Positions 1,192 through 14,935 of a stretch of 64,000 nt of DNA are shown in pieces. The first letter of the stretch is position 1. Every line of letters starts with the position of its first letter. Position numbers and translations under genes: made by a program. Under the pieces are notes generated by a model, which saw nothing but the letters and a program-made list of their open reading frames with translations, was not told where the DNA came from and made no database searches. Source of the stretch: a virus (Duplodnaviria > Caudoviricetes); IMG/VR virus record IMGVR_UViG_3300023435_000009, one strand, 5' to 3'.

Positions 1192-4100
1192 ATGCCATTT
1201 CCTGGTCAAAATTATGCTCCTCCGGGCGTTTTCACGACGACACTATTTGAAAACCCTTTGGCATCGGCTCTGGAGAGCCTCAAGATTCCCATCATCATTG
1301 GTGAGGGAAATGAGAACCTCATCCAGCAAGACCTGGAGATCGTCCGTGGTTCCTCTTCCACGGTGGATCAGCGGGTTGTCGGTGAGGACGAGTCTCTTCG
1401 TGCTGTCGTGGTTGAGTCTGCCACAGGTCAGATCACCCTGGGTGCCTGGGACGGAGTCCTGGACAAGCTCCAGGTGGTAAACTACCCCATCGTCACTGGT
1501 GACGGTACGGGCACTACGACCACAAGCCGCACTGACGTGACCGTGACCATCAATAACGAGGTCATCGCCGTCCGTTCCGTGGCCGGGTCCACCGGACTTG
1601 TACAGCTTGCAACCGTTCCCTCGCCCGGAGACGTCGTCCGCTGTACCTACTACTTCGATCGCACGGACACCCTGCTGACCGATGACGTGTCGGAACAGGT
1701 GCCCAACCGTCTGGCGACCGTGAAGGCTCTCTCGGGTCTCGCAGACGTGGACGCCCCGAACTCCACCAGTGCCGTCCTGGACATCCACGGCGATATCACG
1801 GTGGGTGGTGTGGTTGTGGATGCGGCCAACAACGTTGTCAACCTGGTGGTTGACAGTGTGGCCCGTTCCATTGCCCTTCCGGCACGCAGCACCTACACGA
1901 TGGCTCAGATTGCAGCAGCGATCACAGCGGCCCGTGCGGGGACGCTGACGGCCACCACCTTCGTGAACAGCTACGGACACTCTACGCTGTCCCTGCTGGC
2001 CACCTATAGCGTGTCTGTAGCGGATGGGAGTGCCAACGGGCTGCTCGGCCTCATCGCTGGGCTGGCTGATAACCGGGTCTCCACCTTCTACACCTTCCAA
2101 GGTCCCATCGTGGACGGTTCCGGCGGTGGTGTGACCACGACCGACCCCTCCCACGTTGTGGTGCGGGTGGATGGTGTCCAGGTCATCCCCTCGTCCGTGG
2201 ACGGTGCCTCCCGTGCAGTGACCCTGTCTCGGGCACCCAAAGCGGGTGCGGTGATGTCCATCCAGTACTACTGGAACACCTGGCAGGATACGTTCGATTA
2301 CCTGGCTCACATCGCCGTCACATCGGTGACTCAGTGCGGTTCGGTGCCAGGCGTCAGCGACTACACCCAGGGTGCCGACTTCATCCTTGAGGATGATCGC
2401 ATCATGTGGGGCACGGCAGCCACGGTGATTGCGGGGATCAATACGGTCGGATCGGAGCCGTTCGATGACACCCAGATCGGTCTGTCCCTGGTGGACAACC
2501 GGACCTTCCTCGGGGCATGCACCCCGGTGGTGTCCGCTGCTGGTGGTGTGTCCACGGACTCCCGCCTCAGCTTCCAGCTTCCCGTGAGTCCTACGCTGGG
2601 AAACGGGCGGGATACACCGCTCGGTCAGAGCCTCTACCAGACCATCAGCAACAATCGGATCGACGTGGCAACCAACCGTCCTGATGTCGTGTGGGCCTAC
2701 TGGGGCTACGACGTCCAGGATGCGATGGCACGGGGCAAGGTTGAAGTGCTGAAGGTTGAAGGTTCCGTCCTCACCTTGGCGGAGGCCGTTCCTCCGGGTG
2801 CCTCGGTGTGGGCAACCGTGTACTACAACGTTCTCACCGACGCCACCTACACCATCGCCAACGAGGCAGCGGGTGCCTCGGGTGTTGGTCAGTACGCCGT
2901 GAAGAACGCCCTGGGCGCTTCCATCTTCGGTGCCTCAATCACCGCAGGGAGTAAGGGTGCGGCTCTTGTAGGAGTCACTGTGGAATTCCCCTCCGGTTCC
3001 GAGTTGAACCCGGACTTCCACTATGAGTCCGTGAGTGGCGACTTCTTCACGGGGCCTGTTGACGAGATCGTTACGGTCCAGTTTGCAGCCCGGAAGGCAT
3101 CCCCGGCCAAGTATGGCCTCTCCGGTGCCGGACCCTATGCCTTCATCGATGGTCAGTCCGACCACCTCCGTGTCCAGGTACATGGGATTGAGGCAACCTC
3201 GACGGCGGGCCTCGATCTGGCATCCCCCTCGGCGGTCCTCACCCACACGGGTGGCTTCTTCGCCTCCCTCGTCGGAACTGAACTGGCATACGAAGGCGGC
3301 GTTGGTTCCGTGGAGGGTGAGAGCGTTACGATCACGGCGGATGAGACCCTCACACTGATTGTGGACGACGTCAGCATCCCGGTGGTGTTGCCCCCGGCGA
3401 CTGCCGTGGATGCCACCTACTTTGCAGACCGTATTAATGAGCATGCCAGCGGGCACGGCGGGCTGGCTCAGGGTGGATCCATTGCAAGTACCCTCGTGTT
3501 GAGCGCTACCGCTACGCCCCCCGCAGCGGCGACCTCGGACGACTACTACAACGGCTGGGTCATTGTAGTCGGCAACGGTGGTGCAGGCACCGCCGGTCAG
3601 GCTGTGACCGTGACGGACTACGACGGCGTCACCCAGACGGCGACGGTGACCCCCGTATGGGCCGCAGCGTCTCCGATTGTCACGGATCCCTACTTCATCT
3701 ACAACCCCAACACGGTGGCGCTCTATACAGGAGCCACCAAGTTCGACGGTCCCGTCACACTGGCGGTTGGCCTGCATGATAAGATGCGTATGGTCTACAC
3801 AGGCGACGTGTCCGGTGCGCTGGTGTTTACCGCTGGCAACACGGTGGATCTGGGTGATGGCCCCTTCGCCACGGCAGCGCTTCTCGCCGCCGAGGTCACC
3901 TCACAGACCGCTGTTCAGGTCACAGCCCTCGCCTCGGTAGCGCACGCAGGACTGATCATTACCTGTGCAGCGAACGCCGATGGGCAGTTGCAGTTCAGCA
4001 TGCAGCTTCCGGGCGTGGACACTGCCGGATCTTTGCAGTTCCTCGACGCAGCAACCGCCGCTGAGGACTTCGCAATCCTGGCGGGTCTTGACACAGGGGC

Positions 4101-6501
4101 TGCCGCTGCCGGTGGTCAGGCTGCCCTGGTACAGGGTCCGATTGCTCGGGCCTACGAGTGCCCCGTGACCGGCGAGTACAAGCCCTATGACCGGATCATC
4201 CTCCGCAACCGCTTCCTGCCAGGTGGTGGCGGAAGCATGGCTGCCGACTTCGTGGTGTCCCAGACCGAATTGGGGGTCCAGGTCGGAAACGACATCGTTG
4301 GGCTGGCTACGGGAGACACCGGATACGCCGGGTCCGCCGCTGTTGTTCACCCCGCTACGATGTACGGGAACGTGGGCATCATTGGTGGTCAGGATGCAGT
4401 CACGGCAGAGCCTGCGGTTCTGTTCTATGACGGTACGGGCACCCAGGGAGCGAACGACGACTTCCTCTTTGAGTTGGACGGTACCCCGGTAGAGGTGAAC
4501 TTCACCGCTACCCCCACGGGAACGTCCACGGCGCTGGGTCCGATCACGGCTGTCGCCTCGGTTCTCGGTCAGATCGTTGCAGCGATGGCAGCCGTTCCGG
4601 GCGCACCCTGGGGCAACGCAGCCGCAGTCATCGCTGCCGGGCTGGTTATCCAGGAAGGTGCAGGCACCCGCCTCAAGGGTGTCCTGACGAACGAGCAGGC
4701 CAAGATCGTTATCGGGTCTGGGAACGCCAACGGCTCCATCGGGTTCGGTTCCGGTGCCGCAGCATTCCGCTCCCTGGTGGAGACCAAGAAACTGGCATCT
4801 GCTCTGATGAGTCACCAGATTGCCACTTTCAACGACTGGACTTTGGATCCCACCGCCGTCCCCGGTGGTGGAACCCACACCTTCGTCCGTTATGGATTCG
4901 CTACGGTGGTCCTGGACGAGACCGACGCTGAGTTCCTGTACATCCAGGACGCTCCGGCACTGACGGCTTCCTTGGGGAGCGCATCCAGCGTGACCGTCAG
5001 GGATCCCAGCCCGAACGTGCAGAGCGCTCTGTTCTACGGCACGGGCCTCACCTCCGAGGACGGCGACGGTGCGGTGGGTGACCCGGCACTGGATGGCTAC
5101 TTCGTCATTTCCAGCAACAGCGCTGGGTCCGGTTCCGTTGCCACCTCGGTGCTCAACAACGGTACGGGCCAGGACGGTGTGGTCGGACAGACCTACATCG
5201 ATGACGTGACCGGCCTGACCTTCACGATCCTCCCGAGGAACTGGAGCACGGATAAGGTCGGTCCCTGGATCAGCTATCCCACGGGTGCCACGGCAATCTT
5301 CCGGGTCGCCTGTTCCACGACGTTCACCTGTGACGCCAACATCCCGGTCCGGGTTATTCCCGGTGTGGAGATGAAGGTGGCCAACACTGTGAACGTGGCT
5401 GTCGATGATACGGCGACGGTGAAGACCTACGAGCGTGCGGGCAACGAGCCCTCCATCGGTGACCTGTACTACGCCAGCTACATCTACACGAAGCAGGACT
5501 TCACGACTCAGTTCTACACCAAGATGTCCTCGGTGGAGGCAGCCTACGGCTCCCCCATCCCGGACAACCCGGTGTCCCTCGCCACCTACCTGGCGATGTT
5601 GAATGGTGCGGTCCTGGTCGGAGTGAAGCAGGTCCAGAAGGAAGGGACTGGTGAGCAGGCCAGTGTCGCCTCCTACACCGCAGCGATTGCGGAGATGGAA
5701 GGTGTGCTGCCCGGCTTCGTGACCCCCGATATCATCACGCCGATGCGGGGTGATTCGACGGACATGTACCAGATCCTCCGTCGCTCCTGTGACAAGATGA
5801 GCAGCATCCGGTACAAGTCCGAACGGACGGCCATCGTCGGTACGGTCTCGGGAACGCTTCCCACGGATGCAATCTCGCTGGCCCAGACCCTGGGTAGCAC
5901 CCGTATGCGGCTGGTGTACCCGGACATGGCAACCCTCACCGTTCAGGACAACCTGAACAATGTGCGGGAGTATCTGGTGGACGGACCCTTCCTGGCCGCA
6001 GCTCTTGCAGGCTCGGTTGTGTCCCCGAACCTTGATGTGGCGACTCCCTGGACGGGGCGTCGGCTGACCGGGTTCACCCAGCTTGCCCGCCTGCTCGACC
6101 CGGTCGAGGCCAATCAGGTGGCACAGAAGGGTGTGACGATCCTCGAAGACAAGCCTCCGTTCCTGCGGGTGCGGCACGGTCTGACCACGGACATGTCCAA
6201 CATCCTGACCAAGCTGCCGACGATCATCATGATCGCAGACGAGGTGCAGCGGCAGGCCCGGAACGTCCTGGAGAACTTCGTTGGGATCAAGTTCCTGCCC
6301 GGTGTCGTGAGCCAGATCGAGGGTCGGTTGGCGATGATGCTCAAGCGGCTCGTTGCCGCCCAGATCATCAGTGCCTACACCGGAGTCAAGGCCAACATCT
6401 CAGCCGACGATCCCACAATCGCAGAGATAGAGGCGTACTATTCCCCAGTATTCCCACTATTATACCTAATTCTCACCTTTCATTTGAGGTCAAGTTTGTA
6501 G
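1192..6501 (+). CDS. contractile tail sheath protein, very large (1769 aa) with inserted domains
   Basis: N-terminal YAPPGVF motif. C-terminal sheath domain (DEVQRQARNVLENFVGIKF...MLKRLVAAQIISAY...AEIEAYYSPVFPLLYLILTFHL). GAGGTG SD before the ATG; strong GC3 bias. Confidence 0.92.
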   Translation: MPFPGQNYAPPGVFTTTLFENPLASALESLKIPIIIGEGNENLIQQDLEIVRGSSSTVDQRVVGEDESLRAVVVESATGQITLGAWDGVLDKLQVVNYPIVTGDGTGTTTTSRTDVTVTINNEVIAVRSVAGSTGLVQLATVPSPGDVVRCTYYFDRTDTLLTDDVSEQVPNRLATVKALSGLADVDAPNSTSAVLDIHGDITVGGVVVDAANNVVNLVVDSVARSIALPARSTYTMAQIAAAITAARAGTLTATTFVNSYGHSTLSLLATYSVSVADGSANGLLGLIAGLADNRVSTFYTFQGPIVDGSGGGVTTTDPSHVVVRVDGVQVIPSSVDGASRAVTLSRAPKAGAVMSIQYYWNTWQDTFDYLAHIAVTSVTQCGSVPGVSDYTQGADFILEDDRIMWGTAATVIAGINTVGSEPFDDTQIGLSLVDNRTFLGACTPVVSAAGGVSTDSRLSFQLPVSPTLGNGRDTPLGQSLYQTISNNRIDVATNRPDVVWAYWGYDVQDAMARGKVEVLKVEGSVLTLAEAVPPGASVWATVYYNVLTDATYTIANEAAGASGVGQYAVKNALGASIFGASITAGSKGAALVGVTVEFPSGSELNPDFHYESVSGDFFTGPVDEIVTVQFAARKASPAKYGLSGAGPYAFIDGQSDHLRVQVHGIEATSTAGLDLASPSAVLTHTGGFFASLVGTELAYEGGVGSVEGESVTITADETLTLIVDDVSIPVVLPPATAVDATYFADRINEHASGHGGLAQGGSIASTLVLSATATPPAAATSDDYYNGWVIVVGNGGAGTAGQAVTVTDYDGVTQTATVTPVWAAASPIVTDPYFIYNPNTVALYTGATKFDGPVTLAVGLHDKMRMVYTGDVSGALVFTAGNTVDLGDGPFATAALLAAEVTSQTAVQVTALASVAHAGLIITCAANADGQLQFSMQLPGVDTAGSLQFLDAATAAEDFAILAGLDTGAAAAGGQAALVQGPIARAYECPVTGEYKPYDRIILRNRFLPGGGGSMAADFVVSQTELGVQVGNDIVGLATGDTGYAGSAAVVHPATMYGNVGIIGGQDAVTAEPAVLFYDGTGTQGANDDFLFELDGTPVEVNFTATPTGTSTALGPITAVASVLGQIVAAMAAVPGAPWGNAAAVIAAGLVIQEGAGTRLKGVLTNEQAKIVIGSGNANGSIGFGSGAAAFRSLVETKKLASALMSHQIATFNDWTLDPTAVPGGGTHTFVRYGFATVVLDETDAEFLYIQDAPALTASLGSASSVTVRDPSPNVQSALFYGTGLTSEDGDGAVGDPALDGYFVISSNSAGSGSVATSVLNNGTGQDGVVGQTYIDDVTGLTFTILPRNWSTDKVGPWISYPTGATAIFRVACSTTFTCDANIPVRVIPGVEMKVANTVNVAVDDTATVKTYERAGNEPSIGDLYYASYIYTKQDFTTQFYTKMSSVEAAYGSPIPDNPVSLATYLAMLNGAVLVGVKQVQKEGTGEQASVASYTAAIAEMEGVLPGFVTPDIITPMRGDSTDMYQILRRSCDKMSSIRYKSERTAIVGTVSGTLPTDAISLAQTLGSTRMRLVYPDMATLTVQDNLNNVREYLVDGPFLAAALAGSVVSPNLDVATPWTGRRLTGFTQLARLLDPVEANQVAQKGVTILEDKPPFLRVRHGLTTDMSNILTKLPTIIMIADEVQRQARNVLENFVGIKFLPGVVSQIEGRLAMMLKRLVAAQIISAYTGVKANISADDPTIAEIEAYYSPVFPLLYLILTFHLRSSL
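6446..6460 (+). promoter_or_regulatory. putative late-promoter motif CAGT-N8-TAT embedded in the sheath 3' end
   Basis: CAGT attcccac TAT lies within the A/T-rich terminal codons of the sheath gene. Confidence 0.45.
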
Positions 6502-6538
6502 GGCAGCCACTATTCAGCGTAAAAGAGCCTAGTAATCC

Positions 6539-6567
6539 TTGACGACCTCCTGATTTCCCGGTATCGT
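6539..6567 (+). promoter_or_regulatory. sigma70-type promoter for the endonuclease gene
   Basis: TTGACG (6539-6544), 17 nt, TATCGT (6562-6567), followed by AGGAGG and ATG at 6587. Confidence 0.65.
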
Positions 6568-6586
6568 GGATTTAGGAGGTGGCTCA

Positions 6587-8557
6587 ATGGGTGGACCAAG
6601 ATCTAAAGCAACTCAGGAAGAAATCCTAGACCCTTTTGCGACGACGGAGCCTTTCAAAGCTGTTGCTCGTCGTTTGGGCATGAGTCCCAACACTTTACGA
6701 GTTAAATGGAAGGCCGCTTTTGGGGAAGATGCCTTTGTCGCACGTGGCAAAAAGCTCCAGGCTGCTGCGGCTGCCAAAACATGTCGGGCTACGGCTAACT
6801 CTCGTGTGTACAAGGACGTTACAGTGGCATGTTCAAAGTGTCATAGTCCTGTCGTTCTGAAAGCTAATCAGACGGCACACATGGAGTTAACAACTTTCGT
6901 CTGTGAAAATTGCCGTTGTGATCGTGCTTGTCCTGTGTGTGGCTTACAGGTAGTTGGGGAAGGGGGTCTGGCGGGACATTTCGGACGTCGTAGAAAGGCG
7001 GGGGACGAGGCGCACATTCGTTATCAGGATGCCCAAAGGGAAGCCCGTTGGGCTAGTGTCACACAGGGGGTTGACTACGTCGTCTGCCTTGTCTGTGGTC
7101 ATCGTTCGAAGTCTTTGGCTCGACATTTGAAAGCGGCACATGGGATTACGGCGGATCAGTACCGTGCTCAGTATGGTCGAGATGTTCAGATTCGTTCCCT
7201 AAAGGTTGAACGGGCAATGTCTGACGCTGCTAGGACTAGGGATGGTGGACATGGTACAGGCGAGGTTAAGTCCGTCACCTGTCCGGGGTGTGGTACGCCC
7301 CATGACGTTTCCAAGTTTTTGGGTTGGATGCATGACAGTCGTTGTCCCTCCTGCCAACAGAAAGCCGAGGATACCAGATGGGCTGACAAGTTCGAACCTG
7401 AGGATTACGTGACTTGTTTAGAGTGTGGGTACAGAGCGGAGAACCTAACTAGCCACATACAGAACGCTCATCCTGGGTACCGACAGCAACACCCAAAAGC
7501 CTTAATGGTAGCTTTGTCATCAGCAATACGGGACAAGTCTGTATTACGAGGGCGACGACTGTCGGATGAAACCCGACAGAAGATGTCCGAGAATGCCGGG
7601 CGTTGGAACAAGGGACTAACCAAGGAGGACCATCCGAGCATCGCCCGGAGTTCCAAAAAAATGTTAGGACGGCCTTCTTGGAGTAAAGGATTGACAGCAG
7701 CAGAGGATCCTCGTTTGGCGGAAACTGCCCGGAAGTTGAAATTCTATACTGGAGAGAACCGTCCTTGGGATAATGGGTTGGCTGCTAATTTAACCCTGAA
7801 GGATTTCGAACCCTTTATGGATGCTGATGGCTGTGTTGATCATCATCGGGTGACGGAAGTTACGGGGGTCTCTTGGATCACTGTGCGAAAGTATATCGTG
7901 GACCTGGGGTTGGCTCAGACTCGGCGGTACGTCAGGAACGCTGCTGATGACCGGACGATCCGGTTGGATAAGGCATTACTGGAACAGTTCAAACTGAAGA
8001 ACGGGAAGGTTTCCATTGGTAAAGCGATGTCCGTGACGGGGCATCATTACCCCGTTATCAAGAGGGAGTGTGACCGGCATGGCCTGCCTACCTTTCATCG
8101 GCATATCCGACAAATTCTTTGTTTGGACGCTGTTAGTAAGGCTTTGGGTGACGTGCCCTATGAGATGGAATGGTCCTCCATGAGATATACCAACCCTCCG
8201 ACTGGACGTCGTTTCCGTTTCGATGGTCATTTCCTTCTCCCTGACGCTACCCACCTAATAGTTGAATTCCAGGGTCATCAGCATTACACGTTCCCTAACG
8301 CTTTTATGATTGACGAGTCCTATTTGCCTGAATATGAGGCACTACGGGAGCGTGACCGGATTAAGCGGGAGATGGTCCAGGCTTCGTCCGGATTCCATTA
8401 CCTGGAGGTTACTGAGGATGAGCCCTACCGAGACGTGTCCTATCTACAGGGACGGTTAGTTTCCCTCGGTGTTCTTGAAGCGAAGGCACAGGGTCTTTGG
8501 TTAGGGACGAGGTTGATTTGTCCCGCTCAGGATCAAACTGAGATTAGCCGACCTTGA
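6587..8557 (+). CDS. free-standing homing-endonuclease-like protein (HTH, multiple Zn fingers, NUMOD3-like repeats, C-terminal Vsr/DUF559-like nuclease)
   Basis: ATG 6587 follows AGGAGGT. Contains CxxC pairs, two C2H2-like fingers (CLVCGHRSKSLARHLKAAH; CLECGYRAENLTSHIQNAH), SDETRQKMSE and WNKGLT/WSKGLT repeats, and RFRFDG...VEFQGHQH...RERDRIKR. Lower GC3 than the neighbouring structural genes. Confidence 0.75.
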   Translation: MGGPRSKATQEEILDPFATTEPFKAVARRLGMSPNTLRVKWKAAFGEDAFVARGKKLQAAAAAKTCRATANSRVYKDVTVACSKCHSPVVLKANQTAHMELTTFVCENCRCDRACPVCGLQVVGEGGLAGHFGRRRKAGDEAHIRYQDAQREARWASVTQGVDYVVCLVCGHRSKSLARHLKAAHGITADQYRAQYGRDVQIRSLKVERAMSDAARTRDGGHGTGEVKSVTCPGCGTPHDVSKFLGWMHDSRCPSCQQKAEDTRWADKFEPEDYVTCLECGYRAENLTSHIQNAHPGYRQQHPKALMVALSSAIRDKSVLRGRRLSDETRQKMSENAGRWNKGLTKEDHPSIARSSKKMLGRPSWSKGLTAAEDPRLAETARKLKFYTGENRPWDNGLAANLTLKDFEPFMDADGCVDHHRVTEVTGVSWITVRKYIVDLGLAQTRRYVRNAADDRTIRLDKALLEQFKLKNGKVSIGKAMSVTGHHYPVIKRECDRHGLPTFHRHIRQILCLDAVSKALGDVPYEMEWSSMRYTNPPTGRRFRFDGHFLLPDATHLIVEFQGHQHYTFPNAFMIDESYLPEYEALRERDRIKREMVQASSGFHYLEVTEDEPYRDVSYLQGRLVSLGVLEAKAQGLWLGTRLICPAQDQTEISRP

Positions 8558-8960
8558 TGTCGACGGGCTGGACCTTGGCGGTCTTCCTGAAGGGGATCCT
8601 CACGGTCAGGACACCGTTCACACACTTGGCGTCGATCTTGGCCGTGTCGTACTTCTCATCGAGCAGTACACTGGCGGAGAAGGTGTGTTCCTTGCCGCCT
8701 TGTATGAGAGGGAGCTTGTAGGTGACGTCGATCTGAAGCGACCCCTTCTCGACCTTGATGGTCACATCCTCACGGGTGGCTCCGGGGATGAGCGCCTGGT
8801 ACGTGGACCCCGTGTCATCGTGGACGATCCCATGTACTCCTACCTCGGTGCTTTTCCACTCGGGGGTGTCCTTCCCGAAGAGATCGTCCAGTTTCCTGAA
8901 CATCTCATCGAACCGGGGGCCGAAGATGTTGTCCCCATCGAATCCGCATCTGTCCTTCAT
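8544..8960 (-). CDS. hsp20: small heat-shock protein (Hsp20/alpha-crystallin)
   Basis: IPGATREDVTIKVEKGSLQI...DTAKIDAKCVNGVLTVRIP is the alpha-crystallin domain signature; AAGGAGG SD upstream on the minus strand. Confidence 0.92.
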   Translation of the reverse strand: MKDRCGFDGDNIFGPRFDEMFRKLDDLFGKDTPEWKSTEVGVHGIVHDDTGSTYQALIPGATREDVTIKVEKGSLQIDVTYKLPLIQGGKEHTFSASVLLDEKYDTAKIDAKCVNGVLTVRIPFRKTAKVQPVDIKVG

Positions 8961-8990
8961 TGTGGCCTCCTTTTGCTGCCTACAACCCTG

Positions 8991-9018
8991 AAGGTAACAG
9001 GGCTATGCCTCCTGTCAA
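8991..9018 (-). promoter_or_regulatory. sigma70-type promoter for hsp20
   Basis: Minus strand: TTGACA (9018-9013), 16 nt, TACCTT (8996-8991), preceded by TGn (extended -10). Confidence 0.55.
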
Positions 9019-9051
9019 GATGAAACCTCTGAAAAATCTTTTTTGACAAAC

Positions 9052-9080
9052 TTGACAGCGGGAAGTTGACAGCCTACTCT
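9052..9080 (+). promoter_or_regulatory. sigma70-type promoter for the MerR/VIT-vWA operon
   Basis: TTGACA (9052-9057), 17 nt, TACTCT (9075-9080); extra TTGACA copies at 9043 and 9066. Confidence 0.6.
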
Positions 9081-9103
9081 AGCGAGCAAGGACGGGGGTA
9101 GGA

Positions 9104-9829
9104 ATGCAGCACTACATCTATTTTTTAGAGGACGCAAAAAATGAGGCCATTAAGATAGGGACATCCACAAACCCTCGGGACCGAGCATCTGCTATTCAGG
9201 TGTCCACACCGTCTAATGTGGTTCTTTTGCGTTATGTCCCGGTCAAGGCTCCCTATGATGTGGAGGAGTTTCTGCACCGGCAGTTTCAACATCTTTATAT
9301 CAGGGGGGAGTGGTTTCGGAATGTCCCGGAACTCAAGGAGTTCGCTCTGAGGGGGGACGTTCCGCAGTTTGTTCCTCAGGGTCAAAGGTCATCTTGTGCA
9401 GTAGCCTTGGACACGGATGACAAATGGTCTCTGCCCCAACTCTCAGAATTGGTGGGGGTCTCCGCCCGAACTATCAGGTACTACATCTCCATTTACCTTT
9501 TGCCTGGTCCTTGTCGTTCTGGACCGGGGGCCTACTACACCGAAAAACATCGGGTGATGCTTCTTTTTATCTCTGAGAAGAGGGCACAGCGGCTGAGTCT
9601 CACTGAGATCCGCTCTTTGTTGGAAAAGTCACTGCCCACAGAAACCAGATCTTTACCCCAAACTCCGGCTCAAAAGGAGATCGTGTATGCTGTTTCCGAT
9701 GATGTGATTGTACGCATTCCAGAGAGACTTTCCCCTTGGAGAAAAAACCGCATCCTTTCTGGTTTGGCTCAGTTTGAGCGAGACATTCAAAAGATCCCGG
9801 ATATTGCAGACGAAAACGAGGAGATTTGA
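9104..9829 (+). CDS. T5orf172 (GIY-YIG-like) domain fused to a MerR-type HTH
   Basis: N-terminus YIYFL...IKIGTSTNP...R...VEEFLHRQF...IRGEWF; C-terminal half WSLPQLSELVGVSARTIRYY...YYTEKH...LSLTEIRSLL. Confidence 0.8.
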   Translation: MQHYIYFLEDAKNEAIKIGTSTNPRDRASAIQVSTPSNVVLLRYVPVKAPYDVEEFLHRQFQHLYIRGEWFRNVPELKEFALRGDVPQFVPQGQRSSCAVALDTDDKWSLPQLSELVGVSARTIRYYISIYLLPGPCRSGPGAYYTEKHRVMLLFISEKRAQRLSLTEIRSLLEKSLPTETRSLPQTPAQKEIVYAVSDDVIVRIPERLSPWRKNRILSGLAQFERDIQKIPDIADENEEI

Positions 9830-9831
9830 CG

Positions 9832-12414
9832 ATGAGAGGCATGGCACAGGAACTCGGAAACGTATTGGTGAATCCGCACACGCACGTCCCAGTGCCCCTG
9901 GCGATGGAGAAGATGGAGATGACAGGTCAGGTCACTCCTGCGGGTGGGTTGATGACCATCGTCCACAGCTTCAAGTGCGCCGGGGACCAGCCCATGGAGG
10001 CGCTGTACATCTTCCAGCTTCCCCGTGGTGGGGCCGTCCGGCGGTACAAGGTGAAGGGAAAGGACTTCGAGGTGGACTCCCAGCTTACCCCGAGGGAGGA
10101 CGCCCGGAAGGAGTACGAGGCTGGCGTGGAGGCCGGTCACCTGTCCACCCTGGCGGAGACTAGCCTGGACGGGGTCGTAACCATCATGGTGGGACAGGTC
10201 CAGCCCGATGAGACGGTCACGGTCGCTGTTGATGTGATCGGTGGGGTGGAACTGCAGGACGGGCGGTACCGCTTCCGGTTCCCCTTTACCCTGGCCCCCA
10301 GCTATCACAGCATTGCCCGCATCACGCCCACTTCTGGTGGTTCCAAGATGGAATTGCCTCAGGACATCTTCGATGAGTTGGTCCTGCCCGAGTGGAAGGA
10401 CAACGCCGAGGAGTTGCACGAGATCAGTTTCAGGCTTCACCTGGAGGCCGCTGGTTTGGTCGGTACCGTGTCCTCCCCCTCTCACAACGTGACGATGCAG
10501 CAGAACATCAATGGTTCCGCTGACGTTTGGCTGGCGGGCCTCTCCTCGTCCCCGGATCGGGATCTGGTCATCGACGTGTCCACCCGTGAGGTGGCCCCGG
10601 TGGTGTTTGCCGATCAGTCCATAGTGAAGGGGAAGCCATCTAAGGGCAAAAAAGGTCATCCCCGGTGGATGGTCGCCCTCCCCTCCGAACTCGTCCCACA
10701 GGCCACCCAGGTGCCCAGGAAGGTGATTTTCATGGTGGATCGCTCCGGCTCCATGCGGGGGAAGAGGATCGAGCAGGCCCTGGTGTCCGTGAAGGCGTGT
10801 CTTTCCGGGTTGGCTCCGGAGGATCAGTTTGGTCTGCTCCGGTTCGACAGTATGACGGAGACCTTCCATAAGAGCTTGGCGCAGGCTACCGATGACAATC
10901 GTGCTCGTGCGGCCCGCTGGTTGCAGGGGACACACTCTCAGGGTGGGACGCAGTTGGCTACGGCCTTGTCGGAGGCTCTGACGATCCTGGATGGTGATGG
11001 AGACATTTTCCTGATCACGGACGGTGAGGTGTGGGAGACCGGCCCCATCGTGGAGTCCATGGCTGCTTCCGGGAGCCGTGTCCATGTGCTGGGGATCGGG
11101 GGTGCTGCCCAGGATCGCTTCCTGGCCCAGCTTGCCCGGCGTACCGGCGGCGTCCAGAAGATGCTGAACCCCTCGGAGAACGTGCTCGCAGGGGCTATGG
11201 AACTGTTCAACGCCGTCAAGTGCCCCCGTCATTCCGACGTGAAGGTGCTGGTGGAGATGAACGGTTCGGCCAAGCCTCAGATGCACGAGGTCGGGGACGT
11301 GTGGGACGGTCGGCCTGTGTTCATCACGGACAACGGTGGGTCCAAGAACGGTTCCTACCCCGTCAGGATGGGCCTTGTTGGGATGAGTGTGGTGGTGGAC
11401 GTACCCACCCAGCGGGAGCTTTCAGAGGGTGCTGTGAGCCTTTTGTGGGCTGGGCGGCAGGTTGAGGATCTGGAAACCGCCATCGATATGGCTGGGAGTG
11501 GCCCGGCTCGGGTGGCAATGGAGACCAGCCTTAAGAAGATCTCGGTCGATTTTGGTATCGCCAGTCGGGTGATGTCCCTTTGTGCTATCGTCAAACGGGT
11601 CGGGGATCAGGCCGGGGTGACCCCGGAGCAGCGGGTGGTACCCACGGGTGTCCCCTACGACAAGGTGTTGGGCAGCGTACTTCGGAGTGCCAGCCCCAAC
11701 GACATCATGGTGAACCATTGTTTCGCTGCCTCCGCAGCATCTCACGAGCCCCCTACGTTTGGCGGTGTCCTCCATGCGATGTCCCCGGACACCTACGGGT
11801 CCACCGGGATGAATATCCGTCGTTCCTCTGTGAGGGGTTCGTCCATTGGTGCCTCCACGAAGGGATCTTCTGGCACTTGGGCAGATAGTTCTGGCACCTG
11901 GGCGGATAGTTCTGGCACCTGGGCGGATGATGTGGGAGTCGCCACTACGGGGGACAAGGACTACGGCTCGGACGGTTTGGGAGTGGAACTGCTCTTCGAT
12001 CAGGATCCGGGTGAGACTACCCCTTCGGTGAACACCTTGGGCCAGTCCCCTGTTGTATCCAGTACCCTGGGTGCCATTGTGCAGCATATGACCCTGCTGG
12101 CCCAGATCCAGTCCGATGGTGGATTGCCTGGGGCAACCCACGAGATCAGGGTGGCCAAGACTTTGCTCCTGGCACTCAAGTTGCTCCAGACTACGGTGCT
12201 GACGCAGACGAGCATGTATAAGGCGCACCTCACCCGGATGGCTGATTTCCTGGAGGCGGTGGGGTCGATTTACGACTTCCTGCCCCCTCTGGCCAAGAGG
12301 CTCAGGGCTGCATCTTCCCAGGTGCCGGGGGAGTGGGTACCGCAGGGTAACCTGGACGGTGCGGCGGCTCAGGCCACTATCGCTTCCGTCCAGATGGCCT
12401 TCCTTTCCAGGTGA
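9832..12414 (+). CDS. VIT (vault/inter-alpha-trypsin) plus von Willebrand factor A domain protein
   Basis: VIT segment (MEALYIFQLPRGGAVRRY...AGHLSTL...VGQVQPDETVTV), intact MIDAS (DRSGSM, GGT, LITDGE). ATG 9832 is 8 nt after GAGGAG and is preferred over TTG 9826. Confidence 0.88.
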   Translation: MRGMAQELGNVLVNPHTHVPVPLAMEKMEMTGQVTPAGGLMTIVHSFKCAGDQPMEALYIFQLPRGGAVRRYKVKGKDFEVDSQLTPREDARKEYEAGVEAGHLSTLAETSLDGVVTIMVGQVQPDETVTVAVDVIGGVELQDGRYRFRFPFTLAPSYHSIARITPTSGGSKMELPQDIFDELVLPEWKDNAEELHEISFRLHLEAAGLVGTVSSPSHNVTMQQNINGSADVWLAGLSSSPDRDLVIDVSTREVAPVVFADQSIVKGKPSKGKKGHPRWMVALPSELVPQATQVPRKVIFMVDRSGSMRGKRIEQALVSVKACLSGLAPEDQFGLLRFDSMTETFHKSLAQATDDNRARAARWLQGTHSQGGTQLATALSEALTILDGDGDIFLITDGEVWETGPIVESMAASGSRVHVLGIGGAAQDRFLAQLARRTGGVQKMLNPSENVLAGAMELFNAVKCPRHSDVKVLVEMNGSAKPQMHEVGDVWDGRPVFITDNGGSKNGSYPVRMGLVGMSVVVDVPTQRELSEGAVSLLWAGRQVEDLETAIDMAGSGPARVAMETSLKKISVDFGIASRVMSLCAIVKRVGDQAGVTPEQRVVPTGVPYDKVLGSVLRSASPNDIMVNHCFAASAASHEPPTFGGVLHAMSPDTYGSTGMNIRRSSVRGSSIGASTKGSSGTWADSSGTWADSSGTWADDVGVATTGDKDYGSDGLGVELLFDQDPGETTPSVNTLGQSPVVSSTLGAIVQHMTLLAQIQSDGGLPGATHEIRVAKTLLLALKLLQTTVLTQTSMYKAHLTRMADFLEAVGSIYDFLPPLAKRLRAASSQVPGEWVPQGNLDGAAAQATIASVQMAFLSR
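11869..11928 (+). repeat. 21-bp tandem repeat, about 3 copies, encoding (SGTWADS)n
   Basis: tctggcacttgggcagatagt / tctggcacctgggcggatagt / tctggcacctgggcggat. Confidence 0.95.
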
Positions 12415-12528
12415 CTCTTAGGGGGCCTTTCCGGTAAAGTGATTTAATGGAGGTGCCCCATGCCCGAGTGTCCGCCTCTACCACGAAACAGTCTCTGATC
12501 CTCCTTTAGGCCAGCCGCAGACCCTCAT

Positions 12529-12543
12529 CGTTTTTCCGGTTAT
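12529..12543 (+). promoter_or_regulatory. putative late-promoter motif CGTT-N8-TAT
   Basis: CGTT tttccggt TAT, about 60 nt before the tail tube start. Confidence 0.55.
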
Positions 12544-12603
12544 ATTAGACTCTGAGTGAGGACGGATACCGTCTTACGACCTCGTGTGTAACGGGAGGAG
12601 CGC

Positions 12604-13452
12604 ATGGCTGCTAACAACATGGACAACAACCCCTCTAACGGTGTGGGTGGGTCGTCGTACCTGTACGATTTCGGAACCAGCCCCAACACCCGGACGGCGG
12701 TGTCTCAGAAGGTGCGTATCCTGACACCGCACTATGGGAACAACGCTGCGATGCACCAGATGGGTGTGATCAGTTCGTTCAACCCCACGGAGAGCCGGAC
12801 GATTGAGCCGGTTCGTGGTGTGGGGTTCGGGGACAAGATCGCAGAGTTGGTCCCGTCCGTCACGGAACCGATGACGGGTTCCTTCGAACGAGCCCTTCTG
12901 TACCTCTGTAATCTTTGGCAGGCTTCCGGGTATGCTGGCGGCGTGGACGGTCCCGTCCGTAGCCTCTCGCATCACAAGTGGCCGTTCGACATCGAGCAGC
13001 AGCTTGTGTTCTCAACCCTGGCGGACATCGATATGGGTGCGCCCAACGTCGGTACACAGGGGAAGAGTGGTCAGTTCGACGGTGGTGTGAAGCGGACCCA
13101 GTTCCCTCAGGTCACATCCGATGGTTCCGTGAGTCCCGGATTGGATCCCAGCCAGAGAGGCCATTCCGCTGTCATCACCATCTACGAGGCGTGCTGGTTC
13201 ACGTCCTGGTCTGCTACCTTCGCTAAGGACTCCGGGATGATTATGGAGACCGGCGACGTGACCATCTCTGATGTTCACGACTTCGCCTCCGTGTACGGTG
13301 AGTTCCTGGCCACGGGTAACGACCCCACCATCGGTCAGCTTGGGTCCATCCGTTTCGCTGAGTCCTCAGAGGGCTACACGATTGCCCAGGCGGGCGGCAA
13401 CATCGGTGGCGGTGACACTGCGTCCGCCTACGATCTGAACCTGGATATCTAG
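12604..13452 (+). CDS. tail tube protein
   Basis: GGAGGAG SD; 282 aa; beta-rich pattern (SSFNPTESRTIEPVRGVGFGDKIAELVP...YEACWFTSWSATF...METGDVTISD); lies between the sheath and the chaperone/tape measure genes. Confidence 0.8.
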   Translation: MAANNMDNNPSNGVGGSSYLYDFGTSPNTRTAVSQKVRILTPHYGNNAAMHQMGVISSFNPTESRTIEPVRGVGFGDKIAELVPSVTEPMTGSFERALLYLCNLWQASGYAGGVDGPVRSLSHHKWPFDIEQQLVFSTLADIDMGAPNVGTQGKSGQFDGGVKRTQFPQVTSDGSVSPGLDPSQRGHSAVITIYEACWFTSWSATFAKDSGMIMETGDVTISDVHDFASVYGEFLATGNDPTIGQLGSIRFAESSEGYTIAQAGGNIGGGDTASAYDLNLDI

Positions 13453-13459
13453 TGTCTCC

Positions 13460-13477
13460 GCCCGTGTGAGCACGGGT
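13460..13477 (+). terminator. hairpin after the tube gene (possible terminator or processing stem)
   Basis: gCCCGTG-tgag-CACGGGt; no strong U-tract follows. Confidence 0.3.
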
Positions 13478-13486
13478 TGGTATGAT
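13478..13486 (+). promoter_or_regulatory. extended -10 element upstream of the chaperone-tape measure genes
   Basis: TGgTATGAT at 13478-13486; no recognisable -35. Confidence 0.45.
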
Positions 13487-13699
13487 GAGATGAGGAAACA
13501 GTCCCTGGCGGCCTAAACAAAGCCGATGGACAGATGTGGATGCTCCTGTTGTGCTTTTTTCCCCTCCCTCGGGAGGTGGTCAGATTGAGATGGGTTCAAA
13601 TGTCCACGGATGTTTCATTGTGTGCTGTCAATGGCCTACCACCTGCTGTTTCCCCTTAAGGACTACGCCCTTTGACGGGCGAATTGACGTGAGGGAAAT

Positions 13700-14935
13700 A
13701 TGCAGATCTCTTTTGAAGCCTTAGAGAAAGCTCTAGCTCCTATCAAGGACATCGGACAGGGGGAACTGACTTTCCCGGTTGGAGGTGTGGACATCACTCT
13801 CCAGGTGCTAACACCTGAACAGGAGGTCGACGTCCAGAGGTATGCTGGTGAGGCTATCCAAGGGGATGAAGACGAGAACATCTCGACCACTGCTGACTAC
13901 CTGGAGCGATTCAAGGTCGCAGTTCTTTCCCACGCCATCATTGCCGTTGGGGACCAGGATCTCCGGGACGTGGATGTCGTAGAGACGGATGAGAAGCTTC
14001 CTAATGGCCAGTCCGTCAAACTTCCCAAAGTCCAGGCTTTGCGAAAAATGCTTCTTCAGTGGACTGGAACAGTTCGGATTAGTATTTTTCGTAAGTATGG
14101 TGAGTTGCTGGAAAAGGTGGAGCGCCGAGCCGAGTCGGCCATTACCTTTGAGCCTGCGGATTTGGGTACGGAGATAGAGAGGGTCGAGCAACGTCTGAAG
14201 ACACTTCAGGAGGAGAAGAAAAAGCAGGGCAAGGATGCGGAGGACGGGGTTTCCTCTCAGGTTGCCAAGCTGGCCAAATCCTTGGCTCGTCAGGGGGTGC
14301 AGGATCAAGCCGAGTATAGGGAACATGTAGACCAGGCAGCGGCGGCGAGAGTCGGCGTTACCTCTGAGGAAGGAGCGGAGGTCCCCCCTGAGGCCCCTGC
14401 ACCGTCCGAGAGCCCCGTTCCCCGGCAGTCTATCCTCCCCCCCTCTGCGCCTCCCCCCGGCGCTGTGAAGCCTAACGTAGCAGTACCGCCCCCGGAACCC
14501 ACTCCACCCCCGGAGACCGCTCCTGATGTTGCTCGGGCACCAGAGCCGTTGCCCGAGGAGGATTCCTTTGTGGATGCCGGAGATTCCGAGGCTATGGACG
14601 CAGCGGTGGATGCGGAGAACCGGCGTCTAATCGAAATCCGACGTCGGGCCATTGAGCAGCATCGGGCTGGGGAGGTACCGCAACAGCCCCATGGGATGCG
14701 ACCACCTCCTCATCGGGCCGCACAGGATGTTCCGAGCACCGATTACAACCCGGAGGACTTTGACGATTCCCAACTGAAGGTGAGCAAGGCTCCGGACGGT
14801 GCGCCCGCTGTCCAGATGCAGCCTACGGAAGAACTGTCACAGACCAAAGGATCTCGGGGGGGACGTGTTCCTCTCAATCAAGCCGCAGCGCCCAAAGGTT
14901 CAGGGAATCCACGGTTCAAGCCCCCTCAGAAGTGA
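13700..14935 (+). CDS. probable tail assembly chaperone with a Pro/Ala-rich C-terminal extension
   Basis: Position between tube and tape measure; N-terminal ~160 aa (ITLQVLTPEQEVDV...VAVLSHAII...IFRKYGELL) has a chaperone-like pattern; GAGGGA SD. Confidence 0.6.
   Translation: MQISFEALEKALAPIKDIGQGELTFPVGGVDITLQVLTPEQEVDVQRYAGEAIQGDEDENISTTADYLERFKVAVLSHAIIAVGDQDLRDVDVVETDEKLPNGQSVKLPKVQALRKMLLQWTGTVRISIFRKYGELLEKVERRAESAITFEPADLGTEIERVEQRLKTLQEEKKKQGKDAEDGVSSQVAKLAKSLARQGVQDQAEYREHVDQAAAARVGVTSEEGAEVPPEAPAPSESPVPRQSILPPSAPPPGAVKPNVAVPPPEPTPPPETAPDVARAPEPLPEEDSFVDAGDSEAMDAAVDAENRRLIEIRRRAIEQHRAGEVPQQPHGMRPPPHRAAQDVPSTDYNPEDFDDSQLKVSKAPDGAPAVQMQPTEELSQTKGSRGGRVPLNQAAAPKGSGNPRFKPPQK

Follow-up and report, generated by a model that had tools for sequence, protein, structure and literature searches.

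In T-even phages, free-standing homing endonucleases cut genomes that lack the endonuclease, and repair of the break co-converts flanking markers (PMC2988022). For I-TevI, segB and mobE, a promoter lies inside a hairpin that sequesters the Shine-Dalgarno (SD) sequence (PMC2988022). I-Bth0305I founded the EDxHD family of nucleases, in which N-terminal DNA-binding modules are combined with a C-terminal Vsr-like domain; the free-standing Hef of phage U5 is a member (PMC3239194). In other phages, nuclease genes beside essential structural genes mark the boundaries of exchange (PMC10448857). Here we describe a locus in a 64,000-nucleotide stretch of Caudoviricetes DNA (IMG/VR record IMGVR_UViG_3300023435_000009; the whole stretch is referred to as the window), in which the 3′ end of a tail sheath gene shifts abruptly in codon usage just before a gene for a predicted free-standing endonuclease. 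The likely explanation is intronless homing with co-conversion of the flank, by which the segment from ~6381-6415 to ~8557 would have been acquired as one imported unit. This unit would comprise the last 85-120 sheath bases, an 85-base spacer with a predicted promoter and ribosome-binding site, and the endonuclease gene. The process itself is known; the novelty lies in the enzyme family and in how strictly it is tied to the sheath gene of huge phages.

As in the intronless homing of T4, the endonuclease gene lies between genes and next to a conserved essential gene, is patchily distributed, and is accompanied by a donor tract that appears to be co-converted in the neighbour. The predicted promoter also lies inside a hairpin that would hide the ribosome-binding site, as in I-TevI, segB and mobE. 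The locus differs from the T4 systems in that the nuclease is neither GIY-YIG nor HNH, its DNA-binding part consists of Ros/MucR-type zinc fingers, the predicted internal promoter is sigma-70-like instead of a T4 late promoter, the host is an uncultured phage of ~0.5 Mb, and cleavage is predicted. The protein shares with the EDxHD enzymes I-Bth0305I and Hef the layout of N-terminal DNA-binding and C-terminal Vsr-like parts. However, zinc fingers replace the NUMOD2/HTH modules, the gene is not inside an intron, and the EDxHD residues are not confidently mappable. The locus also resembles the homing endonuclease gene islands of ICP1 (Barth, Dunham, Seed 2023, PMC10448857), since here too the endonuclease gene is adjacent to a gene for tail morphogenesis and forms the border of a segment that was exchanged. 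Another likeness to these islands is a second nuclease-type gene (T5orf172 fused to MerR) 0.5 kb beyond the first, the two enclosing a single gene. The exchanged flank is <120 bases here, in contrast to a 10-kb island of >90% identity there.

We gathered forty-odd related loci from viral and metagenome contigs (numbered with the prefix L). Among them, L024 is a metagenome contig of 2123 bases, from sample Ga0307992, that bears the same sheath gene. The features of the locus are as follows, where GC3 is the G+C fraction at third codon positions:

1192-6501, + strand: tail sheath gene, 1769 amino acids; the fold of the last 370 amino acids matches phage and contractile injection system sheath proteins (E 1e-10, probability 1.00).

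6381-6501, + strand: putative foreign (co-converted) sheath 3′ end, with the left edge somewhere within 6381-6415; marked by the break in identity to L024 and by a drop in GC3, with the peptide kept and silent sites replaced.

6539-6567, + strand: predicted sigma-70-type promoter of the endonuclease gene, from a promoter scan (TTGACG, 17-nt spacer, TATCGT).

6545-6582, + strand: predicted hairpin (minimum-energy fold) with the SD sequence AGGAGG (6574-6579) in its 3′ arm; the 5′ arm is just past the -35 box and the -10 box is in the loop.

6587-8557, + strand: predicted free-standing homing endonuclease gene, 656 amino acids from ATG 6587; matches to ROS_MUCR and phrog_9084, uniformly low GC3 (0.49).

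8096-8479, + strand: predicted Vsr-like PD-(D/E)xK nuclease core, from an AlphaFold model and VIA-align.

The open reading frame (ORF) at 1192-6501 had no Pfam or PHROG match. By its modelled fold it is a contractile-tail sheath gene: a model of the last 370 amino acids, built with 23 relatives, matched the sheath of phage 812 at E 1e-10, and also DSY3957, pyocin R2, AFP and T4 gp18. The replaced tail encodes the last two beta-strands of the sheath. The C-terminal peptide (...PVFPLLYxxLTFHLRSSL) is nearly invariant and kept in at least 40 relatives, and the C-terminus still looks normal, as an earlier reading of this DNA (the preliminary description) had stated. As a separate observation, the sheath gene of the closest IMG/VR relative has a lone in-frame TAA (L002, 6694-6696) at a conserved Leu position in a frame that is otherwise open. 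Nonsense mutation, sequencing error and read-through are each possible.

The comparison with L024 places the break in the sheath gene precisely. Over 5150-6380 the two sequences differ at 15 of 1231 positions, and over 6040-6380 there are no mismatches. Mismatches start at 6381, 6384 and 6402 and are dense from there, so that identity falls from 100% to ~67% at 6381-6402, and the divergence continues into the endonuclease gene. Past the break, the tail is 67-70% identical, the spacer 30-53% and the initial 414 bases of the endonuclease gene ~75%. The point where identity to L024 resumes confirms ATG 6587 as the endonuclease start. The tail of L024 also has a low GC3 (0.50) but a different sequence, and its downstream gene is a different endonuclease allele with 76% protein identity. 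Two near-identical phages carry different versions of the tail, spacer and endonuclease, and therefore this is a recombination junction and not the result of mutation in place. As judged from the alignment, the recoded tract is the left flank of this junction, and the near-identical strain fixes the breakpoint to ~20-35 bases.

The codon shift at the sheath 3′ end is real and far above chance. The counts given in the preliminary description were exact: among the 28 codons at 6415-6498, 15 end in A/T and 10 in A, and among the 60 codons at 6181-6360 the numbers are 5 and 1. Elsewhere in the gene (1769 codons in all), A/T-ending codons account for a fraction of 0.256 and A-ending codons for 0.074 (Fisher test versus the tail, p = 0.0018 and 2.4e-5, respectively). 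Windows of 28 codons with at least eight A-ending codons were found at the sheath 3′ end only, and the likelihood change point of A/T-ending codons is 6409. The shift extends beyond the gene, with GC content dropping from ~0.62 to 0.42-0.44 at 6400-6550 and then remaining near 0.5 until ~8550. GC3 is 0.46 in the tail and 0.49 in the endonuclease gene, compared with 0.80 in the sheath body (0.80-0.85 upstream of the tail). It is back to 0.8 in the convergent Hsp20 gene at the right side of the tract, ~8557.

Endonuclease-free relatives of similar GC, with which the preliminary description had suggested comparison, have tails that stay GC-rich and do not share the A-rich codons. In detail, the L004 group has a tail GC3 of 0.93, the L015 group and L042 have one of 1.0, and L003 has one of 0.75. 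Across 16 endonuclease-bearing loci, the offset of tail GC3 from the sheath body tracks that of the endonuclease gene (Spearman 0.68, p 0.004), and GC3 of the endonuclease gene is below that of the sheath body in 15 of them. When only high-GC3 loci were compared, the tail drop with versus without endonuclease was not significant (Mann-Whitney p 0.075). Three loci (L019, L020 and L021) have the endonuclease and no drop in tail GC3. Therefore, the A-rich tail appears to reflect the lower GC of the donor and a long conversion tract, and not endonuclease carriage itself.

Short codon signatures by the stop are also shared among loci. The last three sense codons, TCA AGT TTG, are rare in these GC3-rich genes and are common to this phage, L019, L048 and the remnant locus L017, although the sheath proteins that share this ending are only 51-68% identical to that of this phage. 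CAT TTR AGG occurs in this phage, L024, L021, L022 and L035, and is absent from all 14 endonuclease-free loci compared. When L021 was compared with its endonuclease-free relative L015, 21 bases were identical and then 9 of the 24 final bases differed. The simplest reading of the GC3 comparisons would be that the tail came in as part of the imported unit, with a flank that differs in length from case to case, and that this particular donor was lower in GC. The preliminary description had proposed that the endonuclease brought a replacement end along with its own promoter. The shared break against L024 and the shared foreign composition uphold the first half of this proposal, namely that the tail arrived with the endonuclease gene; the second half, a promoter in the tail, did not hold (see below).

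The position of the endonuclease gene is fixed. Homologues occur 57-118 nt after the sheath stop codon and on the same strand in all 16 loci where they were located, including five homologues that were chosen for low identity (38-56%) and long contigs. In the window, the endonuclease ORF is a gene of its own between genes, 85 nt past the sheath stop, with its own SD sequence and predicted promoter. The right-hand neighbour differs among loci and may be MerR/VIT-vWA genes, small ORFs or a UvrD helicase. Decayed remnants follow the sheath stop in four more loci. Compared with L029, L012 (7203-7370) has a clean 1.76-kb internal deletion, in which the promoter, the hairpin, the first 26 codons and the last codons were kept. 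Only 36-40 C-terminal codons are left, directly after the sheath stop, in L010 (7161-7280) and L017 (3342-3443), and a similar C-terminal remnant was read by eye in L041 after position 534. At least 14 loci have no trace of the endonuclease, and where their sequence was read, a hairpin is found directly after the stop. Sheath and endonuclease identities to this phage are 75% and 49% for L002, and 68% and 67% for L019. Thus, L002 has the closest sheath after L024, yet one of the most distant endonucleases. Such a pattern, which suggests invasion, decay and loss, is typical of a homing endonuclease gene.

The predicted endonuclease comprises an N-terminal helix-turn-helix (HTH), Ros/MucR-type zinc fingers, weak NUMOD-like repeats, a second HTH and a C-terminal nuclease. 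The ROS_MUCR family (PF05443) matched with an E-value of 2.6e-16 over profile positions 62-97 of 123, and the Ros structure 2jsp with an E-value of 2.3e-5. Several further Cys/His finger-like motifs were read by eye. The NUMOD3 score is weak (E 0.057; 13.8 bits, under the cut-off of 20.4). The sole family match in the C-terminal region is to phrog_9084, “homing endonuclease” (E 1.2e-4). The nuclease domain had no sequence-level match in Pfam or PDB, with either the single sequence or a 9-sequence profile, and none to Vsr or I-Bth0305I.

We modelled the last 190 residues using AlphaFold (pLDDT 83.6). The best VIA-align match of the model was Vsr (1cw0; Z 9.6, rmsd 2.9, 111 residues aligned), and the catalytic domain of I-Bth0305I (3r3p) aligned with Z 8.5 and rmsd 3.4 over 95 of 98 residues. 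RAP-domain proteins were also among the best structural matches, and every further match was a PD-(D/E)xK nuclease. Foldseek matched Vsr with a probability of 0.98-0.99 at an E-value of only 0.02-0.04, and its E-values in general were only about 0.01. A clear match came from the exhaustive VIA-align comparison alone. Five residues (D80, E94, H100, D124 and K127) are invariant in nine homologues. With regard to the EDxHD motif (Glu25, Asp51, His69 and Asp97 in Vsr), D80, E94, H100 and D124 are the invariant residues here, and the sequence could not be aligned to Vsr or I-Bth0305I.

The nuclease domain is rare: 99 representative clusters out of 1.84 billion have it. The family of full-length proteins numbers at least 207, of which many are on contigs of 0.1-0.5 Mb. 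In the source databases, homologues are labelled as MucR-family or “predicted” transcriptional regulators, ribosomal proteins or Zn-ribbon proteins, and the nuclease domain is without a Pfam model. Identification as a Ros/MucR regulator, which is small and has a single zinc-finger domain, was ruled out for this protein, as it has 656 amino acids with several fingers and a nuclease domain. The proteins of this family look like site-specific nucleases with a single target, the sheath gene 3′ end. A family on contigs of up to 0.5 Mb, annotated as MucR-type regulators, is thus set apart as predicted nucleases. The combination of a zinc-finger array and a small Vsr-like nuclease may be of interest to nuclease engineers.

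The preliminary description had located a promoter in the sheath tail, as a copy of a late-promoter motif of the window (CAGT-N8-TAT). The string itself, CAGTATTCCCACTAT, is present at 6446-6460. However, the motif is not recurrent, as there are 3 copies in 64 kb versus 2.76 expected from shuffled sequences, and this chance frequency rules it out as a late-promoter motif of the whole 64-kb stretch. Nor was the hidden promoter borne out, given that the sigma-70-type candidate that is conserved across loci sits in the spacer. Its form, TTGAC(A/G/T)-17-TAnnnT, occurs at the same distance to the start codon in L019, L029, L012, L034, L002, L021 and L047. The endonuclease is probably expressed from this intergenic sigma-70-type promoter of its own. 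Separately, we noted that the word AACAGT, which differs from the form in the tail, recurs in three intergenic regions upstream of structural genes (1-82, 12415-12607 and 13453-13703). It may be the late motif that was meant.

The hairpin that overlaps the predicted promoter may control translation. The predicted probability that the SD sequence is unpaired is 0.00 in the sheath read-through RNA (0 of 50 shuffles were as low), versus 0.46 in an RNA beginning near the SD sequence. Equivalent hairpins, with different stem sequences and the pairing kept, were identified in L029, L012, L034, L035, L019, L047 and L050. Sequestration of the SD sequence is predicted in this phage and clearly in five other loci, and it was no better than in shuffled controls in L024, L019, L002 and L020. 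A consensus fold of the promoter-hairpin region contained no base pairs, as the MAFFT alignment does not bring the stems into a common register. The predictions suggest that the endonuclease would be translated from its own transcripts and would be silent on the abundant late sheath mRNA.

In combination, and by analogy with the intronless homing of T4, these results are consistent with the following course of events. In a mixed infection, an endonuclease encoded by a related huge phage of lower GC would have cut the sheath-end region of an ancestor of this phage. The break would have been resected and repaired from the donor genome, and the repair would have copied in the endonuclease gene together with the donor version of the flanking sheath codons (co-conversion). 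As the sheath C-terminus is almost invariant in protein, the swap would be silent and visible at synonymous sites only. Since it is visible only there, the A/T-rich “recoding” would be the codon usage of the donor, and its start would be the left end of the conversion tract. On read-through sheath mRNA, the hairpin would hide the ribosome-binding site of the endonuclease. The junction, the composition common to tail and endonuclease gene, the constant position of the family with its patchy occurrence and decay, and the modelled nuclease fold are direct results. We infer that the cut of the enzyme was the driver of the exchange, as well as where this cut was made and how the gene is expressed. 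We found no protein or DNA similarity to the sheath tail in 6502-13000. This rules out a duplication of the mORF type, with the displaced original 3′ end downstream, and, as no displaced old tail exists there, the end was replaced and not duplicated.

Several observations weigh against homing. Low-GC3 tails also occur in two endonuclease-free loci, L009 and L026. The sheath gene is only 80-90% identical to that of L024 at 4880-5000 and 5090-5150 (elsewhere 97-100%), and no endonuclease gene is nearby; recombination in the sheath gene therefore does not always require an endonuclease. Position 96 of the nuclease core, which is usually Asp in Vsr/DUF559-type relatives, is Gln or Met in this family. 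No donor was found, as an exact-word scan of IMG/VR for the tail sequence gave 0 contigs. Among 5.8 billion clusters, the nearest endonuclease outside its own cluster is 61-68% identical, and the members of its own 90% cluster belong to this same phage (0-1 differences). A search of viral and metagenome contigs gave no twin of this phage that lacks the endonuclease, and contigs of four runs showed no joint that skips the endonuclease gene, where coverage gaps are uninformative.

The low-GC3 tails of L009 and L026 and the diverged sheath patches would also fit ordinary homologous recombination, with the sheath end as a handy conserved crossover stretch and the endonuclease gene carried along passively. 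What lies beyond the sheath gene on its downstream side is moreover a variable hot spot, with cargo that differs by phage. Nevertheless, we consider this explanation quite improbable, because the family is found at one position in all 16 loci while its right neighbour varies, its nuclease fold is closest to Vsr and a proven homing endonuclease, and its invasion, decay and loss are typical of an actively homing element. A possible but doubtful elaboration, put forward in the preliminary description, is that the replacement end exists to destroy the recognition site of the endonuclease and also carries its promoter. In T-even phages, an endonuclease-bearing genome resists through differences in the target sequence, although this wording was not found in the T-even review. 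Two near-identical phages with different endonuclease alleles, each with its own synonymous 28 codons (67% identical), are what allele-specific immunity would give, and the rare codons by the stop are common to endonuclease-bearing loci. On the other hand, the tails of the endonuclease carriers L019, L020, L021 and L002 resemble endonuclease-free alleles at most positions, and insertion past the stop codon may alone split the site. The promoter part fails on the chance frequency of the motif and on the conserved promoter in the spacer. We also regard as rather unlikely, though worth stating, a scenario in which the sheath end is a serial displacement site of rival endonuclease alleles, each with its own synonymous 28 codons that resist its own enzyme and are cut by rivals. 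If this were true, near-isogenic phages of one lake (such as this one and L024) would differ almost only there, and the target of each enzyme would be readable from silent-site differences.

Two further explanations concern the tract itself. It is hardly credible that the existing codons were altered where they stand, by selection for a signal embedded in them or for weak RNA structure where the gene ends. The sheath 5′ end is likewise A/T3-rich, so gene ends can be compositionally special. However, point mutation in place could not produce 341 bases of identity between two strains and then a 30% difference, so that the L024 comparison effectively refutes this possibility. In addition, the endonuclease-free relatives with the same GC have GC-rich tails, and the low GC runs 2 kb past the gene. 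Several related phages share the same lake metagenomes, which could in principle have led to an assembly chimera of two phages at conserved sequence. We regard this as next to inconceivable. The ENA assembly L043 differs from the window at one position in 14,180 bases and not at the junction, and contigs from runs of other studies cross the junction with 0 differences (X16 at 5933-6785 and X22 at 5710-7205). Assemblies made independently, from separate runs and by separate centres, thus agree on the junction (0-1 differences over 14 kb), which is therefore not an assembly artefact. The exact sheath protein is present on 16 contigs and the endonuclease on 21.

The window is a section of a 109-kb IMG/VR contig that is estimated to be ~21% complete. 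The exact sheath protein is also present on a 528-kb contig, and DNA of the window was found in many salt-lake metagenome runs. The host of the locus is a huge (~0.5-Mb) uncultured salt-lake phage. Among phage GenBank records there was only one match, which is weak (243 bases) and to a 485-kb uncultured phage. If homing is the correct explanation, the locus would be a sharply resolved natural case of homing with co-conversion in uncultured huge phages. Composition breaks beside nuclease genes could then be used to predict endonuclease targets, and recognizing them may avoid misreading them as regulatory signals.

When examining the genomic context, we found that the region past the sheath gene collects varied cargo and other selfish elements. 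The Hsp20 gene (8544-8960, - strand), which lies between two nuclease-type genes, is convergent with the endonuclease gene, with an overlap of 14 bases at the end of the latter. Its GC3 of 0.8 is like that of the phage's own genes. Based on a crude ORF call, it is the sole minus-strand gene in the 64-kb stretch, where almost all genes are on the plus strand, and it was absent from the related loci tested (L002-L023). The gene at 9104-9829 (+ strand) encodes 241 amino acids, in which a T5orf172/MUG113 (GIY-YIG-like) domain at the N-terminus is joined to a MerR-type HTH, and has a GC3 of 0.53, compared with 0.75 in its neighbours. At this position, relatives have only a MerR-type protein of 129-135 amino acids before a VIT-vWA gene. 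The gene at 9104-9829 looks like a second, chimeric endonuclease-type gene. In two distant relatives (L050, 4775-7716, and L051, 4466-7398), a UvrD-type helicase gene follows the endonuclease, with a faint intein match in L050.

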